Assembly: GCA_965228735.1 (NCBI GenBank) | Contig: OZ245838.1 | Location: 5,376,001 to 5,440,000 of the forward strand | Direction of reading: 5' to 3' | Source of the DNA: Planctomycetota bacterium | Lineage (GTDB): Bacteria > Planctomycetota > UBA1135 > UBA2386 | DNA length: 64,000 nucleotides | In this document: positions 1,596-60,544 of the stretch, one piece after another | Layout of the letters: each line of letters starts with the position of its first letter | Numbering within the stretch: position 1 is the stretch's first letter | The notes under the pieces: model-generated | What the model was told of the DNA's origin: nothing | Databases searched by the model: none | Seen by the model: the letters and a program-made list of their open reading frames with translations, nothing else | Position numbers and translations under genes: made by a program

Positions 1596-1619
1596 GTGCA
1601 CACTCAAAGCACCAGCTAT
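1596..1619 (+). repeat. Solo copy of the dispersed IS-end-like motif (GTGCACACTCAAAGCACCAGCTAT)
   Basis: 1597-1619 is the exact reverse complement of 24183-24205; intergenic. Confidence 0.85.
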
Positions 1620-24182: not shown

Positions 24183-24279
24183 ATAGCTGGTGCTTTGAGT
24201 GTGCATGCCGTCGCGCTGGCCCGCGCCGCGTCATACATGCGGTGAACCGTATTCAAGGCTGGTGCTTTGAGTGTGCATG
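24183..24279 (-). repeat. Two direct copies of the IS-end-like motif (22 bp GCTGGTGCTTTGAGTGTGCATG) with a 50-bp spacer
   Basis: 24186-24207 is identical to 24258-24279; between convergent genes. Confidence 0.9.
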
Positions 24280-39830: not shown

Positions 39831-39925
39831 GGTGCGCACTCAAAGCACCAGCTGGCTCGATCGGGCCATGCACACTCAAAGCACCAGCTGACTCGGTCGG
39901 GCCGTGCACACCCGAGGCACCAGCC
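39831..39925 (+). repeat. Three tandem 36-bp units each carrying the IS-end-like motif
   Basis: Units start at 39832, 39868 and 39904 (RTGCRCACYCRARGCACCAGC...TCGG). Confidence 0.9.
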
Positions 39926-40029
39926 AGCCCGTCGGCGCGGTCACGATGCCTGCCCGCGGCTCGCGCAAACCGGGTCCGCGAACCGAAGTGATTGCAGGCA
40001 AACGGATTCCAGCCGCCCGGGAGGTGAGG

Positions 40030-51689: not shown

Positions 51690-51699
51690 TCGGCGACCG

Positions 51700-52912
51700 A
51701 GCTGGTGCTTTGGTTGTGCTGACCGGGGCTCAGGCCCCGGCGGCTTCGCGACTCCCGGACCGCTGGTCGGTTGTTGGTGGGCAGGAGAGGAGCCCCCAAT
51801 CCTGCCGCCACGCCAATAGCTCCGCGACGGCCAGCCGTCGCGGGCAGAGTCCCAGCGCGACGGCCGGTGTGAGTCCTGAAGCGTCGTCCCTGTGCCGTCG
51901 CCGGTGCCAGTTGCGGTAGGCGACGAAGATCTCGAGCTGCAGACGGAGCATCCGAGCACTCTTGCTCACGAGCCAGGACCGACCATCCAGCCTGCCGTTG
52001 TGCTCGCGCAGCATGCGCTTGGTCAGTTGAACTGCGAAGAGTGGGTTGGGCGCTGTGCGCGGCAGCTTCGGGGCCGCCGCCTCGTGCCGGACCTGGGGCC
52101 CGAAACGACGCCTGCACTGACTCCCGTACGTCGGCTTCTTGTCGGTGATCAGAGTCGCGTGCTGGCCCCGAAGCAGGTGCTCGAGCCGCGCGAGAACGCG
52201 CCGAACACAGTCCTTGCCGCGGTCCACGCGCCGACCGTGTCGAGCCTCACGCCGCTCGAAGCGCCGGCGTTGCCGGCTGCCCTGCTCGGGGGTTCGCCGA
52301 ATCGGCGCCACGTCGCAGACGAGCATCAGCTTGCTCGCGTGCTCCACGGCGACCCCGACGGTCAAGCGCGAGGTGGGGTGCTGCTCGAACGTCTCGAGCT
52401 CGTCCATGACGATCGCGACTCCGGCGGGGATCTGCCTCAGCAAGTTGCGGTTCAGACAACGCATCTGGCGCCCGAGTTTCCGAAACTTGCGCTGCACGGC
52501 ACCCGAGCTCAGTTCCAGGATCTCACCGGCCTGGCGCAGTCCACACCCGCTCACGAGCAACATGAAGAGCCGCGCGTTCGTTTCGGGTCGTCGGTCGCGG
52601 TAGTCCATGCGAAACGTCTGGCGCGAGAAACTCCGCCTGCACCGTCGGCACGAGAAACGGGGAACCGGCTCAGGGCGACAGCGCGCCCGGTAGCTGCCGC
52701 GGCGTAGATAGAATCTGCCCTCGGGACGGCGGAACGCCACGCAAGCCCGGTTGGGACAGCGCGGCGGCACGAAGTCGTTCTGCGACACGGTCGATCTCCC
52801 CGAGGTCGCCAACCGACCCCGCAACCGTGTAGTGCGCCGCTTTCGCCAGTGGTTACATCGGTGCACAGTCAAGGCACCAGCTGGCGGTGCACAGTCAAGG
52901 CACCAGCTGGCG
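51700..52912 (-). mobile_element. IS1/IS1595-like insertion element bounded by imperfect 20-bp inverted ends
   Basis: Left AGCTGGTGCTTTGGTTGTGC versus reverse complement of right end AGCTGGTGCCTTGACTGTGC (17/20); right end present twice in tandem; encloses the transposase-like ORF. Confidence 0.75.
51730..52788 (-). CDS. IS1-family-like transposase (zinc ribbon + HTH + RNase H-like core)
   Basis: CPNRAC...CRRC zinc ribbon, GLRQAGEILELS HTH, MDELET and ITDKKPTY acidic motifs, TPAVALGL tail; GGGAG RBS before GTG 52788. Confidence 0.8.
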   Translation of the reverse strand: MSQNDFVPPRCPNRACVAFRRPEGRFYLRRGSYRARCRPEPVPRFSCRRCRRSFSRQTFRMDYRDRRPETNARLFMLLVSGCGLRQAGEILELSSGAVQRKFRKLGRQMRCLNRNLLRQIPAGVAIVMDELETFEQHPTSRLTVGVAVEHASKLMLVCDVAPIRRTPEQGSRQRRRFERREARHGRRVDRGKDCVRRVLARLEHLLRGQHATLITDKKPTYGSQCRRRFGPQVRHEAAAPKLPRTAPNPLFAVQLTKRMLREHNGRLDGRSWLVSKSARMLRLQLEIFVAYRNWHRRRHRDDASGLTPAVALGLCPRRLAVAELLAWRQDWGLLSCPPTTDQRSGSREAAGA

Positions 52913-52964: not shown

Positions 52965-53366
52965 CTACGCGTCGCGCTGCACGCGGTCGCCGACCCCGCC
53001 GGCGGGCGTTCGATACCCCGCCAGTGCTCGGCGCCCCTTTCTGGTGCCATGCAACTCGCTGCGGACGCCGTCGAGACCGGCGTGAATGCCGTGCTCGAGA
53101 CGCCCACGCGCGGCGACAGCGGCCTCGCGGAGCTGGCGTTCGTCGTCGTCGTCGGCCTCGGGCGGCTGCAGGCGTTCGAGGTGCTGGTCCACGATGGCCA
53201 GCAGGCCGGCGACCCGTTCGAGGTCGCCGCGCGTGAGGGCGTCGTAGCCCTGGTCCCAGCAGGCCGTCAGTTCCTGCAGGATGTGCGCGGTCGCGGACTG
53301 GGTCGTTGACCCCGCGGTCGACACTTTGGCTGGGCCGGCGTGCGGCTCAGTTGGGAGCGATGCCAT
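52965..53366 (-). CDS. Hypothetical flagellar chaperone-like protein (FliT/FlgN position)
   Basis: Helical 133 aa directly downstream of fliS; C-terminal RALAGY motif. Confidence 0.55.
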   Translation of the reverse strand: MASLPTEPHAGPAKVSTAGSTTQSATAHILQELTACWDQGYDALTRGDLERVAGLLAIVDQHLERLQPPEADDDDERQLREAAVAARGRLEHGIHAGLDGVRSELHGTRKGRRALAGYRTPAGGVGDRVQRDA

Positions 53367-53727
53367 CCCAGCCTTCCTTGAGCGTGCGCATCACGCGCAG
53401 CGCGTTCTGGATCCCCTCCGGGGTGCGCTGCAGGTTGGCCTGGCTCAGCTGGTCGAGCGTGTATTCGTAGAGGCGATCGAGGTCGCGCGCGATGTCGCCG
53501 CCGGCCGCGTGATCGAGGCTGGCGCGGAGCTCGCCGACGATGCCGATCGCGCGGCTCATGTCTTCGCCGACGGCCGCGGAGTGGGCCTGGCCCTTGTCCT
53601 CGAGCGCGATGCGGCACTTCTCGAGGCTCTTGATCGCGCCGTCGTAGAGCATCACGACGAGCTTCTCGGGGGATGCGGTCATCACCGCGTTGCGTTGGTA
53701 CGTAGCGGCTGCTTGTGCGTAGGACAC
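53347..53727 (-). CDS. fliS: Flagellin export chaperone FliS
   Basis: Y....VMTASPEKLVVMLYDGAI, ELRASLD...GG.IA..L..LY.Y, LKEGW. Confidence 0.95.
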   Translation of the reverse strand: MSYAQAAATYQRNAVMTASPEKLVVMLYDGAIKSLEKCRIALEDKGQAHSAAVGEDMSRAIGIVGELRASLDHAAGGDIARDLDRLYEYTLDQLSQANLQRTPEGIQNALRVMRTLKEGWDGIAPN

Positions 53728-53801
53728 TGGGCTCTCTCCTTTGCCTGGGTGTTGCCCCGGGGGGGCGGTTGGGCAGCGGGCGCTGCCGGTTGGGTAGTTC
53801 G

Positions 53802-55163
53802 TTACTGCTGAATCTGGGGGATCGCCGAGAGCGAGCTGCCCTGGCCTTGGAGGCGTGCGAGCATGCTCTCGAGATTGGCGTAGCGCTTCTCCAGCTGCGT
53901 TTCGTAGAGCTCGAGGCGGCGCTCCGCCTGTTCGATGCGGTTGTTCGCGTCCCTGATCCGGGAGTCGAAGCCGTCGAGGCGCGCCTTGATCAGGCCGTCG
54001 ATCGAGTCCGTGTAGACCTTGATCTGGTCCTCGAGCAGCGCCGACAGGCCGTTCTCCGTATCGGTGAAGATCGCTGCGACCGCGGTCTCGTCCTCGGAAA
54101 GGGCCTCCTCGAGCTCCGTGCGGGTGAACGTGAGCTTGCCGTCGCGGTCGGACGAGATGCCGATCTGCGACAGCATCTGGAACGCCTCGTTGCCGGTGCC
54201 TGCGACGACGCCGCCGACGATGCCGCGCAGCGTGGAGCGCATCGATCGCAGGGTCGGGTCGCCGAAGAGATCGCTCTGGGCTTCGCCGTCCTCGCTGACG
54301 ACGCTCTGGGCCGCGAAGAAGTCGACGACTGCGTTGTAGGCCTCGACGAACTCCTCGACCTTGCCGCTGATCTCCTCGGCGTCGGTGCTGACCGACACGG
54401 TGACTTCGTCGGGGGTATTGACCGACTTGAGGTCGAGGGTCACGCCCGCGATTGCACCGCTGATGGAGTTCGTGGAGCGGTAGATGTCGACGCCGTTGAG
54501 CTTGATGTGCGCGTTCTCGGCGTCGGTCTGGTTGGTCGTGACCTCGTTGATCAGATCGGTGAACTGAGTGGCTCCGGTCAGCCCGCTGATCGAGAACGCG
54601 TTGTCCGTGCCGGTCTCCGTGGAGCGCAGGACGAGCTGATACGGATCCGTCGGCGATCCGGTGTCGACGACTTCGGCCCGCACCGTCGAGCCCTTGGCGT
54701 TGATCGCGTCGGCGATTCCCTGCATCGTCGGGTCGCTGACCGAGATGAGCAGCTGTTCACCGTCGATGTTGAGGATGAACTCGCCGTAGCCGCCGAGGCT
54801 CTCGGTCGCCGACGCCCTGCCGTTGCTGTGATTCAGCTGGGCTCGAGCGAGTTCCAGGACCTCGACGCGGTGACTGCCCGGCGCCGCCCCGCTGCTCGCG
54901 GAGGCCGTGAGCACGTCCTCGTCGTCCGAGCTGGCGGCCATCGCGAGGAACTGATTCGTCGTCTTGAGCTTCTTCGCGGCCGATGACAGCTTGTCGAGCA
55001 GGCCGTCGAGGTCGCCGAACAGCGACTTCTGCTTGCTGAGCGAATTCTTCTTGAGCTCGAGCTGGGTGATCGGGCGTTGTTCGATCGCCAGCAGGGCCGA
55101 GATGATCGCCTGCGTATCGAGGCCGGAGGCGAGGCCTCCGAATGAGATTCCAGCGCTGGACAT
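53802..55163 (-). CDS. fliD: Flagellar filament cap protein FliD
   Basis: GLASGLDT..II..L, V..LA.AQ, I.GVTLDL, FV.AYN, L.GD, LSQIGI, YANLE. Confidence 0.95.
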   Translation of the reverse strand: MSSAGISFGGLASGLDTQAIISALLAIEQRPITQLELKKNSLSKQKSLFGDLDGLLDKLSSAAKKLKTTNQFLAMAASSDDEDVLTASASSGAAPGSHRVEVLELARAQLNHSNGRASATESLGGYGEFILNIDGEQLLISVSDPTMQGIADAINAKGSTVRAEVVDTGSPTDPYQLVLRSTETGTDNAFSISGLTGATQFTDLINEVTTNQTDAENAHIKLNGVDIYRSTNSISGAIAGVTLDLKSVNTPDEVTVSVSTDAEEISGKVEEFVEAYNAVVDFFAAQSVVSEDGEAQSDLFGDPTLRSMRSTLRGIVGGVVAGTGNEAFQMLSQIGISSDRDGKLTFTRTELEEALSEDETAVAAIFTDTENGLSALLEDQIKVYTDSIDGLIKARLDGFDSRIRDANNRIEQAERRLELYETQLEKRYANLESMLARLQGQGSSLSAIPQIQQ

Positions 55164-55176
55164 TGGACTGCTCGAA

Positions 55177-55204
55177 TTATCGGTGCGCGGGCCGCGCCAC
55201 TTGA
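55177..55204 (-). promoter_or_regulatory. Sigma-28 promoter of fliD-fliS
   Basis: TCAAG-N15-ACCGATAA, 13 bp upstream of the ATG. Confidence 0.65.
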
Positions 55205-55360
55205 CCTCCGTCCGGCGAGGTCGCGTCGCACGGGTGTCGCAGAATTCAACATGCGGGCACAGCCCGAAGGCTGCGCCCGCATGGGCCCTTTGCTGTAGTG
55301 GTTGGTGGCCTCAGCGCCGTGACATCAGCGTCGGGCGTCTGCGCTCCGCCGCCTGATCCA

Positions 55361-56188
55361 CTAGCCGATCAGCGCGAGCGCCGACTGCGGCAGCGCGTTG
55401 GACTGCGCGAGGACCGAGATGCTGGCCTGCTGCAGGATCGAGTTGCGCGTCAGCTGGGCGGTCTCGTACGCCACGTCGACGTCGCGGATCCGCGACTCGG
55501 CAGCGCTGAGGTTCTCGACCGTGATCGCGAGGTTGTTGATCGTGCTGCCGAGGCGGTTCTGGGCCGCACCCAGCGAGCCGCGCAGCGAGCTGATCGTGTT
55601 GATCGCCGTGTCGATGTTGGTGATCGCCGTCGTCGTCGCGCCGCCGGAGCCGATGTCGAGCGACTGCAGCGACAGGCTCGTGCTCAGCGCGGCACTCAGC
55701 GATACGGCGATGGTGTCGATCCCGTCCGTGGTGCCGAAGCCGACCTGGAACGACACCGAGCTCGACGAGCCGTCGAGCAGCTTGATGCCCGAGAACTCGG
55801 TCGAGCGGCCGATGCGGTTGACCTCGTTGACGAGGCTCTGGAACTCCTCGTCCAGGGTTTCCTTGTCCTGGTTGCTGACCGAGCCGTTGCTCGACTGCAC
55901 CGCGAGCTCGCGCAGGCGCGTCAGGATCGAGCTGACTTCGTTCAGCGCGCCCTCGGCGGTCTGCACCAGCGAGATGCCGTCGTTGGCGTTGCGCTTGGCT
56001 TGATCGAGCGACCGGATCTGCGAGCGCAGACGCTCGGAGATCGCGAGGCCGGCGGCGTCGTCCGCGGCGGTCGAGATGCGAAGACCCGTCGAGAGCCGGC
56101 GGAAGTTGCCCGACAGCTTCTCGTTGACGGTTGAAAGATTGCGCTGCGCATTGATCGACGCGGCGTTCGTGTTGACCCGAAGTCCCAT
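55361..56188 (-). CDS. fliC: Flagellin (275 aa), copy 1
   Basis: [52 protein letters not shown]. Confidence 0.96.
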
Positions 56189-56548
56189 TCCTCTCCCCTG
56201 TTGTGTGGCTTGCTGGTGTGCGCGGCGGTTGTTCCTGGGCGCGTGATGAGAATCGGCACACGAACCCCCGATCACTGAAGCCGAACGCGGGGTTTTTGGA
56301 CGCAGTGTCGTGAATGTCGGCGGTCGACGCGGTGGCACGGGGGAATCCTGACGTGCCATCCCTGGTGGCCGGCCGCGGATCTTGCGCGCGAACTTGCCCC
56401 CGTTCACCCGTTCGCGGTCACCCAGGCAGGTGCCGAGCCTCGGGTTGCGCGCTCACCGCGTGACTTTGCGCGTTGCGAGCGGGACGCGGTTGCGCCTGCC
56501 GATCGGGTGTCGACAATCCTCATCGTGTTCCGAGAACCGAAGTCGCTC

Positions 56549-58249
56549 GTGCGGGCTGTGCTCGCGTCCTTGATCTGCATCGCGCTGGCCGGCGTCGCGC
56601 TTGCCCAGAAGCCCGCGGACCTCGTGCTTCGCGGCGGTCGGATCGTGACGGTCGACGACCGGCTCGGGACGGTCAGTGCCCTCGCTGCGCGTGGGGGGCG
56701 TATTCTCGCGGTCGGCTCGGACGAGGAGATCGGGCGCCTCATCGGGCCGCAGACGCGGGTGATCGACCTCGGCGGCAAGACGGCGGTCCCGGGCTTCATC
56801 GAGGGCCATGCCCATTTCACCGGCATGGGCGACGCCATGCAGATCCTCGACCTGAGCAAGGTCGACAATTGGGACGAGGTCGTCGACATGGTCGCGGACG
56901 CCGTGAAGCAGGCGGCACCGGGCGAGTGGATCCGGGGGCGCGGCTGGCATCAGGAGAAGTGGAGCAAGCGACCGGCCGGCAACGTCAAGGGCTTCCCGAC
57001 GCACGAGTCCATGAGCGCGGTGACGCCCGACAACCCGGTCGCGCTGACGCACGCGAGCGGGCACGCCGCGTTCTTCAACGCCAAGGCCATGGAGATCGCC
57101 GGGGTGACGGATGCGACCAAGGACCCGGATGGCGGCGAGATCCTCAAGAACGAGAAGGGTGAGCCCATCGGTGTCTTCTCGGAGACCGCGTCCTACCTGG
57201 TGTCGCGGCATCAGCGCGGGCGCCAGCTGCGACAGACGCCGGCGCAGCGGCGGGCTGCCGTGCGCACCCGCATCGAGTTGGCGGTTGCCGAGTGCCTGCG
57301 CAAGGGCGTCACGAGTTTTCAGGATGCCGGCAGCAGCTTCGCCGAGGTCGATCTGTTTCGCGAGATGGCGGAGGCCGGAGAGCTCGGCGTGCGACTCTGG
57401 GTCATGATCCGCACATCCAATCAGCAGCTCGAACGCCGGCTGTCCGACTACCGCATGGTCGGGGTCGGCGACGGCTTTCTGACCGTGCGGGCCCTGAAGC
57501 GGAGCATCGATGGCGCGCTCGGTTCGCGTGGCGCGTGGCTGCTCGAGCCGTACTCCGACGCGCCGCAGAGCGCCGGGCTCGAGACTGCATCGGTCGCGAG
57601 CGTCGCGCGAATGGCCGAGCTCGGTCTGGCGCACGATTTCCAGGTCTGCGTGCACGCGATCGGGGATCGCGCCAACCGGGAGGTGCTCGACATCTACGAG
57701 TCGGTCTGGGGCGACGCGGCCCGCGGGCGCGACCTGCGGTGGCGGATCGAGCACGCGCAGCACCTGCATCCCGACGACGTGCCGCGGTTCGGGAAGCTCG
57801 GGGTGATCGCCTCGATGCAGGGCGTGCACTGCACCTCGGACGCGCCCTACGTCATTCCTCGCCTGGGCGAAGAGCGCGCCGAGAACGGCGCCTATGTCTG
57901 GCAGGACCTCATCCGGTCTGGTGCCGTCGTGACGAACGGCACCGACGCACCCGTCGAGGACGTCGATCCGATCGCCTCGTTCCACGCGTCGGTGACGCGT
58001 CAGACCAGGAGCGGTGCGCGATTCTATCCCGAGCAGTCGATGAGCCGGATGCAGGCGCTGCGGTCGTACACGCTGGATTGCGCCTACGCCGCGTTCGAGG
58101 ACGACGTGAAGGGCTCGCTGACGCCCGGCAAGTACGCGGACATCGTCGTGCTGTCGCAGGACATCCTGACCGTGCCCGAGGACCAGATCCTGGATACGAC
58201 CGTGGTCCACACGATCGTCGGCGGCAAGGTCGTGTTCTCCGACGAGTGA
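56549..58249 (+). CDS. Secreted amidohydrolase (Amidohydro_3, YtcJ/NfdA-like)
   Basis: PGFIEGHAH, DGALGSRGA, HAIGDRAN, RIEHAQ, GTDAPV, GKYADIVV; start uncertain (56507 or 56549). Confidence 0.9.
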   Translation: MRAVLASLICIALAGVALAQKPADLVLRGGRIVTVDDRLGTVSALAARGGRILAVGSDEEIGRLIGPQTRVIDLGGKTAVPGFIEGHAHFTGMGDAMQILDLSKVDNWDEVVDMVADAVKQAAPGEWIRGRGWHQEKWSKRPAGNVKGFPTHESMSAVTPDNPVALTHASGHAAFFNAKAMEIAGVTDATKDPDGGEILKNEKGEPIGVFSETASYLVSRHQRGRQLRQTPAQRRAAVRTRIELAVAECLRKGVTSFQDAGSSFAEVDLFREMAEAGELGVRLWVMIRTSNQQLERRLSDYRMVGVGDGFLTVRALKRSIDGALGSRGAWLLEPYSDAPQSAGLETASVASVARMAELGLAHDFQVCVHAIGDRANREVLDIYESVWGDAARGRDLRWRIEHAQHLHPDDVPRFGKLGVIASMQGVHCTSDAPYVIPRLGEERAENGAYVWQDLIRSGAVVTNGTDAPVEDVDPIASFHASVTRQTRSGARFYPEQSMSRMQALRSYTLDCAYAAFEDDVKGSLTPGKYADIVVLSQDILTVPEDQILDTTVVHTIVGGKVVFSDE

Positions 58250-58250
58250 T

Positions 58251-58320
58251 CGTCGTGCCCCGGTCGTCATGCCCCGGCCGTTGTGCGTCGGCCGTCGTGC
58301 CCCGTTCGTCGAGCCCGGTC
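58251..58320. repeat. About 5 x 14-bp degenerate tandem repeat (CGTCGTGCCCCGGY-like)
   Basis: Units at 58251, 58265, 58279, 58293 and 58306, just after the amidohydrolase stop. Confidence 0.6.
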
Positions 58321-58471
58321 GAGGAGACTGCGCCGAACGAGAACGGCGGCGACGCGCCTTCGTGAGGAGCGCCGCCGCCGTCATGATCCGCCGTTTGGCC
58401 AGATGGCTGCGTGGGTCGGATCACGCCGCCGCTCGAACGCGAGTGGCGGGTGACCCGATCATGTCGCGGCC

Positions 58472-59299
58472 TTAGCCGAGCAGCTGCAGCGCACTCTGCG
58501 GCTGGGCGTTGGCCTGACCCAGGATCGAGATCGCGGCCTGCTGCAGGATGTTGTTGCGGGTCAGCTCCGCCGTCTCGCGCGCCACGTCGACGTCGCGGAT
58601 CCGCGACTCGGCAGCGCTGAGGTTCTCGGTCTGGATCGCGAGGTTGTTGATCGTGCTGCCGAGGCGGTTCTGGATCGCGCCGAGCGAGCCGCGCAGGCCG
58701 CTGATCGTGTTGATCGCCGAGTCGATGCTCGTGATGGCGGTCGTGGTCGCGCCACCCGACCCGATGTCGAGTGACTGGAGCGACAACGACGTGCTGAGCG
58801 CCGCGCTGAGCGTGACCGAGAGCGTGTCGATGTCCGTCGTCGTGCCGAGGCCGACCTGGAAGGTGACGGAGCTCGACGACCCATCCAGCAGCTTGATGCC
58901 GTTGAACTCGGTCGAGCGGCCGATGCGGTTGACCTCGTTGACGAGGCTCTGGAACTCCTCATCCAGCGTGTTCTTGTCCTGGTTGCTGACCGAGCCGTTG
59001 CTCGACTGAATGGCCAGCTCGCGCAGCCGAATGAGGATCGAGCTGACTTCGTTGAGCGCGCCTTCCGCGGTTTGAACGAGCGAGACGCCATCGTTCGCGT
59101 TGCGCTTGCCCTGCTCGAGCGAGCGGACCTGGGAGCGCAGGCGCTCCGAGATCGCGAGGCCGGCGGCGTCATCCGCAGCCGTGGAGATACGCAGGCCCGT
59201 CGACAGACGACGGTAGCTCGTGCCGAGGCGCGAGGAGACCGAGGACAGGTTCCGCTGCGCGTTGATGGAAGCGACGTTGGTGTTGACTCTGAGACCCAT
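58472..59299 (-). CDS. fliC: Flagellin (275 aa), copy 2
   Basis: Same N- and C-terminal flagellin motifs as copy 1. Confidence 0.96.
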   Translation of the reverse strand: MGLRVNTNVASINAQRNLSSVSSRLGTSYRRLSTGLRISTAADDAAGLAISERLRSQVRSLEQGKRNANDGVSLVQTAEGALNEVSSILIRLRELAIQSSNGSVSNQDKNTLDEEFQSLVNEVNRIGRSTEFNGIKLLDGSSSSVTFQVGLGTTTDIDTLSVTLSAALSTSLSLQSLDIGSGGATTTAITSIDSAINTISGLRGSLGAIQNRLGSTINNLAIQTENLSAAESRIRDVDVARETAELTRNNILQQAAISILGQANAQPQSALQLLG

Positions 59300-59354
59300 G
59301 ATTCCCTGGTGCTGGTTGCTGAGACTCGGCGGACCGAGTGATGTGACGCTGGCA

Positions 59355-59381
59355 TCCTCGGTCGGATTGGTGACGTCTTGA
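59355..59381 (-). promoter_or_regulatory. Putative sigma-28 promoter of flagellin 2
   Basis: TCAAG-N14-ACCGAGGA. Confidence 0.5.
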
Positions 59382-59447
59382 GCGGTCGGGAGCTCGCCCG
59401 AGCCGAAACCGCCGAATTCCTCGTCGCTCGTCGCGATGGTCGGCAGG

Positions 59448-59462
59448 GCGATCGCGGTGCCA
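59448..59462 (-). promoter_or_regulatory. Putative sigma-54 (-24/-12) promoter upstream of flagellin 2
   Basis: TGGCACCGCGATCGC, GG-N10-GC spacing. Confidence 0.35.
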
Positions 59463-59530
59463 AGGCAGGTGCCGCTTCTGCACCGCTCCACATTTTCTTT
59501 CTGCGCCGAGTGTTGCGAGTTCCGACACGA

Positions 59531-59587
59531 AGCTGGTGCTTTGGTTGTGCAGGCCGCTTCGGCCGCCATGCACACTCGAGGCACCAG
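59531..59587. mobile_element. MITE/REPIN-like miniature: two inverted IS-end motifs around a hairpin
   Basis: 59531-59550 is identical to 51700-51719; right arm GCACACTCGAGGCACCAG; core GGCCG-CTT-CGGCC. Confidence 0.8.
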
Positions 59588-59716
59588 AATGGGGGGCAGC
59601 GGCGCCGTCCGTCCGGTCCGACCGGAAACGAAACGAGCGGCGACCCGGCCTGGCCGGATCGCCGCTCGTGACGAGTGTGGGGGGTGTGGCGGTGGGGCCG
59701 CCTATGGCGGGGTGGC

Positions 59717-60544
59717 TTACCCGAGCAGCTGCAGGGCGGCCTGCGGTTGCTGGTTGGCCTGGGCCAGGATCGAGATGCTGGCCTGCTGCATGATGTTGTT
59801 GCGGGTCAGCTGTGCGGTTTCGCGGGCGACGTCGACGTCGCGGATCCGGGATTCGGCCGCGCTGAGGTTCTCGACCTGCACTGCGAGGTTGTTGATCGTG
59901 CTGCCGAGGCGGTTCTGGATGGCGCCCAGAGAGCCGCGCAGCGAGCTGACGGTGTTGATCGCCGCGTCGATGTTGGTGATCGCCGTGGTCGTCACGCCGC
60001 CCGAGCCGATATCGAGCGATTGCAGCGCCAGCGAGGTGCTGAGCGCGGCTTCGAGCGAGACCGCCAGGGTGTCGATGTTGCTCGTCGTGCCGAGCCCCAC
60101 CTGGAACGTGACGGAGCTCGAGGAGCCGTCCAGGAGCTTGACACCGTTGAACTCGGTCGAGCGGCCGATGCGGTTGACCTCGTTGATGAGGCTCTGGAAC
60201 TCCTCGTCCAGCGTGTTCTTGTCCTGGTTGCTGACCGAGCCGTTGCTCGACTGGATGGCCAGTTCGCGCAGCCGGATCAGGATCGAGCTGACCTCGTTGA
60301 GTGCGCCTTCGGCCGTCTGCACGAGCGAGATGCCGTCATTGGCGTTGCGCTTGCTCTGCTCGAGCGAGCGGACCTGGGAGCGCAGTCGCTCGGAGATGGC
60401 GAGGCCCGCCGCGTCGTCGGCTGCGGTCGAGATGCGCAGGCCGGTCGAGAGCCGGCGGAAATTCGTTCCGAGGCGCCCGGAGACCGTTGCGAGGTTCCGC
60501 TGCGCGTTGATGGAAGCGACGTTGGTGTTGACTCTGAGACCCAT
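59717..60544 (-). CDS. fliC: Flagellin (275 aa), copy 3
   Basis: Same flagellin motifs as copies 1 and 2. Confidence 0.96.

Follow-up and report, generated by a model that had tools for sequence, protein, structure and literature searches.

Short Repeats Around a Single Transposase Gene

How a short repeat comes to lie scattered around a single transposase gene is the question raised by the 64-kb stretch of Planctomycetota DNA analyzed here (herein the window). An earlier note had described an IS1-like transposase gene in this sequence whose terminal motif occurs 11 times, always between genes, and had proposed a REPtron-like system built on an IS1-fold enzyme. We recovered all 11 copies with 0–2 mismatches, each no more than 3 bp from the position first given (1596, 24186, 24258, 39832, 39868, 39904, 51701, 52861, 52887, 59532, and 59568). 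When up to three mismatches are allowed, the window holds 13 matches against 1.45 expected, a number that none of 100 shuffles reached; the two matches beyond the 11 (three mismatches each) look like chance. None of the 11 copies overlaps a gene of a crude codon-model gene set, and the described arrangements (solo, spaced pair, tandem, and inverted doublet) are all present (table 1). The match between the two element ends, given earlier as 17/20, is close to the recomputed values of 16/21 or 18/22. Some copies do contain the internal dyad that had been noted (GTGC-N9-GCAC). Three single units nevertheless show no more folding than their shuffles (z of −1.4, +0.6, and −1.5), and only the inverted doublet forms a hairpin.

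Table 1. Transposase gene and terminal inverted repeat (IR) copies of the window.
Feature	Positions	Strand	Basis
Transposase gene, 352 aa from the most likely start, GTG 52788	51730..52788	-	ORF, weak IS1 model match, alignment, structure model
Right terminal IR, 24 bp, tip first	51698..51721	+	Motif search, end alignment
Left terminal IR, 24 bp	52861..52884	-	Motif search, end alignment
Exact head-to-tail duplicate of left IR, 26-bp unit	52887..52910	-	Without counterpart in contigs of two other runs
Solo IR copy, without partner or target duplication	1596..1619	-	Motif search, partner test
Two IR copies, head to tail, 72 bp apart	24183..24278	+	Motif search
Three-copy IR array, 36-bp period, spacers alike	39832..39927	-	Motif search
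Inverted IR doublet, tips outward, 63 bp, hairpin	59529..59591	.	Motif search, folding z −3.7

The neighborhood includes flagellar genes at 52965–60544 (fliT-, fliS-, and fliD-like genes and three flagellin paralogues, named by eye from sequence), which adjoin a glycosyltransferase/TPR gene and are collinear in congeners.

The Repeat Is the End of an IS1-Related Insertion Sequence

The motif of the window is the 24-bp terminal IR of an IS1-related insertion-sequence (IS) family. Homologues of the transposase lie in elements of 1.1–1.3 kb with IRs of ∼24 bp, and the multi-copy members are ordinary 1.2-kb ISs with 9-bp target duplications. At most of 86 loci the cognate IRs open with three nucleotides followed by [AG]CTG, and an exact 9-bp target duplication is found at 10 of these loci, with one mismatch at 6 more, mostly at multi-copy elements. 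The proposal that cognate ends would diverge together with their enzymes is upheld, as the IRs vary along with the transposase; likewise, the repeat is the cognate end of the window enzyme, an IS1 relative whose single gene copy is fixed at its locus. The family transposes as an ordinary IS, as indicated by the 9-bp target duplications together with an 11-copy young IS in genome G022 that has 22 exact ends and only three extra matches (two mismatches each). The element of the window has IRs and lacks a target duplication (7 of 9 positions mismatched).

The family comprises 458 representatives at E values up to 1e-30, has no Pfam model, and is matched in 100 of the 221 genomes of the order; titled homologous loci belong mostly to Planctomycetota. 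In several genomes, that of the host included, it has also made MITEs of 80–190 bp. Very short inverted IR doublets (∼50–110 bp) resembling REPIN hairpins, here built from the ends of a DDE-fold family, occur at G013:C1:5500031-5500074, in G041 (C89, C20, and C266), and in G213 (L288, L293, and L294). A single full-length homologue in G001 (C35:105355-106356; L012) sits between a tRNA gene and frr and has strongly degenerate IRs.

IS1 itself has an IR of about 24 bp and a 9-bp target duplication, with a range of 8–11 bp across the IS1 family, and is not, to our knowledge, known to leave clouds of solo ends. The window family differs from IS1 in encoding one ORF of 350 aa without a frameshift within an element of 1.1–1.3 kb. 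The two are alike in combining an N-terminal zinc finger and helix-turn-helix with a core of DDE-type fold, as outlined for InsAB′ (PMC12903888).

Loose Copies Are Concentrated Near the Gene

The expectation of a genome-wide, REP-like repeat family is contradicted by the genome scan, which found the motif to be rare elsewhere in the genome, an outcome named beforehand as one that would count against it: the 7.19-Mb host genome (G000) holds 23 copies of the window IR type, 17 of them within 97 kb around the gene, and the other 6 sit 0.4–1.9 Mb away. Loose copies, that is, those apart from element ends, pile up within about 50 kb of the transposase gene. Of four family homologues in this genome, two single-copy genes have such clouds. 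With element ends and MITE-like pairs omitted from the count, 5 of the 10 loose loci of the window type fall within 60 kb of the gene (p 3e-7), as do 7 of the 19 loci bearing the IR variant of a single-copy paralogue at 2.374 Mb (p 1.5e-8), whose cognate cloud includes head-to-tail arrays; the same test places 0 of 12 loose loci near the gene for a two-copy IS, the 60-kb radius and the IR classes having been picked after the data were seen. The window motif was found in 0 of 40 relatives, and a metagenome scan returned 80 single matches that are probably mostly chance.

Paired copies are also present in the host genome, namely one MITE family of 4–5 members elsewhere and one 163-bp inverted pair of the window IR type 45 kb from the gene. 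Seven inverted IR pairs span 161–165 bp (C1: 2198437, 2805943, 3410720, 5474183, 5526277, 6164889, and 6958116), four with a related interior and three with unrelated interiors of the same length. In 9 of 90 family IR copies in this genome (e.g., C1:1967255, 2364174, 2375338, and 2428490), CTGA at the IR tip forms the stop codon of a neighboring gene, with similar cases in G213, G008, and G013.

Clouds Recur in Other Genomes

Clouds are a minority state that arises on separate branches of the family. The clearest counterpart is in G024, where a 16-kb block around a single homologue with an intact core contains 11 IR matches (the two element ends included). The remaining 75.5 kb of the contig has 1 match, and none of 100 shuffles gave more than 1. 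Of the nine loose copies, five fall inside ORFs, and three of these were checked against orthologues (5 for each of two copies in polA, 3 for a copy in an FG-GAP gene). All three are in frame and leave the length unchanged, one FG-GAP orthologue having a 1-residue gap nearby, and at two of the three, mostly conserved residues are altered to fit the motif; a fourth copy falls in a poorly aligned linker.

Elsewhere the pattern is sparser. In G213, 6 matches other than element ends fall on the 99-kb contig of one element (43 genome-wide; control 10), and two of the 6 look like chance; G088 has ∼10 solo IRs, scattered, with 1 near the gene. Among 40 further loci read at ±10 kb, a span of low power, there were 0 dense clouds and 9 loci with 1–3 extra copies. 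On a FastTree phylogeny of 92 proteins (kept from 126 after removal of near-copies), the four cloud-bearing genes need at least three origins, which makes the cloud a recurring state rather than a lineage; the cloud-bearing genes do not form a RAYT-like clade.

Anatomy and Origin of the Loose Copies

The element is a single-copy, locus-fixed IS1 relative, and we hypothesize that its own transposase wrote the loose copies near its gene in cis, a reading to which we assign a probability of roughly 0.5. The enzyme would load on IRs near its own gene and transfer one IR tip into nearby DNA, leaving transposition incomplete (abortive and one-ended); host repair would then copy the protein-bound IR only, sometimes together with one to three further helical turns. 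The products would be solo copies, head-to-tail units of 26, 36, or 46 bp, and hairpin doublets, entering either as short insertions or as equal-length replacements. Such a cloud would feed itself near the gene, since each new copy would be a new substrate. The available descriptions of related enzymes include a cis preference of IS1 transposase (PMC12903888) and, as a model for targeted IS26 events, single-end transfer followed by host resolution (PMC7986276).

The spacing and sequence of the copies bear on this hypothesis. The eleven head-to-tail spacings (25, 26, 26, 29, 35, 36, 36, 46, 48, 56, and 72) cluster at periods of 26, 36, 46, and 56, that is, with a 10-bp period (Rayleigh p about 0.015, post hoc); next to the paralogue at 2.374 Mb is a 36–37-bp array of its own. 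Copies are all or nothing, with no gradient of weak matches near the window gene. Among loose copies the IRs stay near consensus while the flanks are unrelated and have nothing in common with those of element ends; copying might be expected to leave shared flanks, which counts against cis deposition, a mechanism that we infer. The sites near the paralogue are longer than the orthologous intergenic regions in G001 and G002 and therefore look like net insertions, and, set against the length-neutral G024 sites, they suggest that two processes may be mixed.

Net insertions of this kind would also be left by ordinary debris, in which ISs and MITEs hopped locally and their interiors were deleted or decayed until the IRs remained. 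The family does make MITEs in several genomes, the 163-bp pair near the window gene is of the appropriate type, and old MITEs in the host genome likewise lack target duplications. None was found at 13 inverted pairs, and of 31 solo copies 4 had a candidate, vs. 15% in the null. Against debris, 29 of the 31 solo copies have no inverted partner above the usual range of the null within 280 bp, and the two that do belong to another IS type; the IRs stay near consensus amid unrelated flanks, the in-frame, length-neutral copies in polA and the FG-GAP gene cannot be MITE remains, and the window region is collinear with that of G001. We regard debris as an unlikely account, if one with a real chance of being right.

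The Transposase and the History of Its Locus

The start codon adopted for the transposase is the most likely one because the homologous protein of another strain has Met there; residues are numbered from Gln at 52782. The protein has a zinc ribbon (CP-x4-C...C-x2-C), a helix-turn-helix, and an RNase H/integrase core, in that order; its core residues are D127, E128, E130, and D214, and position 252 is Gln instead of the Asn of the family. It is IS1-related yet scores below the cut-off of the NCBIfam IS1 transposase model (NF033558: 35.8 vs. 100 bits, residues 41–157), it matches zero Pfam families, and a sequence search for relatives with solved structure returned none; HTH_Tnp_IS1 matches 8 of 76 family members weakly, and the nearest named atlas clusters are IS1-type. 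A structure model built from 76 homologues (pLDDT 90.7) matches integrases and DDE transposases, MMTV integrase best (Z 13.9, rmsd 3.0, 151 aligned), and its predicted helices at 66–114 resemble HTH domains; with an integrase-type fold, the enzyme is not HUH.

C9, C14, H17, C45, and C48 are conserved in the family (H17 is replaced by Phe in the window protein) and all 161 sequences have D127, E128, and D214, whereas position 252, which from secondary-structure order alone would be the place of the third acidic catalytic residue, is Asn in 158 of 161, His in 2, and Gln in the window protein. Unlike IS1, the family thus seems to carry out transposition with Asn in this third catalytic place, and the invariant E128 or E130 may stand in for the acidic residue. 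Of 104 columns conserved in the family, the window protein differs at 12 (family median 3), 10 of the 12 falling in its C-terminal part (p 0.06). Given these departures and Gln in place of a near-invariant Asn, the window enzyme may be inactive.

The gene occupies the corresponding place in a contig of run X14 that diverges by ∼3% over 15.4 kb, where it has only one left IR. In both X14 and X7, 26 letters are absent at 52859, corresponding to the 26-bp duplicate of the left IR, which marks this duplicate as recent. The protein encoded in X14 shows 94% identity to that of the window; a single difference falls among the first 120 residues, compared with 18 among the remaining 232 (p 0.005). The C-terminal part of the ORF holds at least 35 base differences (40 of 69 were covered), which give pN/pS up to 0.62. 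On these comparisons the predicted DNA-binding half is conserved and the predicted catalytic half is drifting, and any deposition of copies may accordingly be slowing or over. In run X15, most of the transposase gene has no cover, which is uninformative alone; one X15 contig (depth 6) breaks off from the gene at 51809, where unrelated sequence follows that may belong to another mobile element.

At greater distance, the alignment to congener G001 stays collinear across 130 kb at ∼75% identity throughout, with no rearrangement at the cloud sites. The empty-site comparison proposed earlier is informative for the gene, which both congeners lack at this site (∼250 bp in G002 and an unrelated 5.9-kb segment in G001), and less so for the repeats, as intergenic DNA aligns poorly at this level of genome identity; at a few congener sites the first 4–6 IR bases coincide with host sequence in the orthologue, which is suggestive only. 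GC at fourfold sites is 0.906 for genes up to 30 kb from the transposase gene and 0.937 for those more than 60 kb away (p 2e-5), and the G001 orthologues have 0.868 and 0.879 (p 0.5; between-genome difference p 0.03); the gene region lies only at the 8th–12th percentile genome-wide.

A conserved DNA-binding half in a gene kept at one locus between strains ∼3% apart is also what would be seen if the protein had been domesticated, that is, retained as a sequence-specific DNA-binding factor, with nearby sites kept or gained by selection for chromosome organization or regulation. Spacings in helical phase and the amino-acid changes matching the motif that G024 tolerates agree with such a role. We nevertheless consider domestication doubtful: the gene is missing from the site in both congeners, the X15 contig leaves it for unrelated sequence, its C-terminal part has the pN/pS given above (for the differences covered), stepwise selection might have left a gradient of weak sites, and the neighboring genes have no common function.

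A tentative extension of cis deposition, possible although we would not expect it to hold, is that resident transposases act as local editors that, from a fixed locus, overwrite nearby DNA, even polA, with their 24-bp ends and shift it toward AT through nicking and repair, the window protein being a late-stage binding factor for its own sites.

Imported Blocks and REP-Like Systems

Each cloud might instead be an imported block whose donor has the repeat in abundance throughout its genome. Within its 62% GC contig, the cloud of G024 occupies a block of 55% GC with sharp boundaries (G024:C14:75500-91949, L146; its left edge is sharp) that carries polA, ychF, aceK, and the transposase and may be foreign or misassembled; GC3 of its polA is 0.62, against 0.84–0.97 in orthologues from other genera. 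Yet the only polA match in G024 sits in this block, and a scan of the genome collection found no such donor, exact matches being confined to that genome and two single ones elsewhere. In the host genome, the collinearity with G001 and the absence of the motif from the 40 relatives speak against import as well, which we regard as improbable.

Short dispersed repeats with a cognate enzyme have been described for Y1 transposases, and the host genome has a Y1/RAYT-like gene of its own (G000:C1:6716000-6716404; 51 bits, under the family cut-off). The repeat at its flanks is unrelated and occurs in dozens of copies throughout the chromosome, and the nearest family IR is 155 kb away, which excludes this gene as owner of the motif; a second genome-wide repeat family is also present in this genome. 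In REPtrons/RAYT and TIRtrons/TIRYT, as far as the source describes them, an IR-flanked transposase gene is accompanied by the same repeats in single, dimeric, or grouped form elsewhere, the TIR families being moderate in size (PMC3733652).

The window element resembles a TIRtron in its gene with cognate loose ends and in their arrangement. Its gene is single-copy and at the same locus in X14 and X7 but absent from the site in both congeners. The enzymes of REPtrons and TIRtrons are HUH tyrosine (Y1) transposases (PMC3733652), whereas that of the window has an integrase/RNase H fold, and the window repeats are concentrated around the gene in a family that still transposes as an IS. The REPtron-like reading, in which a dedicated IS1-fold enzyme would run a REP family spread genome-wide, keeps in its favor the single-copy gene, the cognate repeat, and the solo, tandem, and doublet layouts, but is very improbable and largely refuted by the genome scan (23 copies, strongly local), by units that are not hairpins, by the enzyme fold, and by a tree without a dedicated clade, the true Y1-type gene having different, chromosome-wide repeats.

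Relation to Known Transposition and Significance

Cis deposition by the window transposase can also be set beside known products of DDE elements. Like the MITEs of other DDE ISs, the family makes inverted-pair elements with its IRs, whereas most cloud copies are solo or head to tail, without partner or target duplication, and some lie in frame in genes. Targeted or single-end transfer by IS26, IS911, and IS30 is similar in that one end is transferred and the host resolves a branched product, but those reactions move whole elements or fuse replicons, and deposition of bare IRs does not appear in the accessible part of that account (PMC7986276). A literature search, which covered mostly papers outside subscription, found neither the family nor any local cloud of solo IS ends described.

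One DDE-fold IS family thus spans young multi-copy ISs, MITEs, hairpin doublets, and solo ends around resident genes, and its Asn at the third catalytic position merits a biochemical look. If the enzyme deposits bare ends in cis, this would add an outcome not described before for DDE transposition and would provide a testable model for the origin of repeat families; a DDE-type IS, rather than a Y1 enzyme, could then start a REP-like repeat family, and an IS that has settled in a genome would keep altering its neighbors, protein sequences included.
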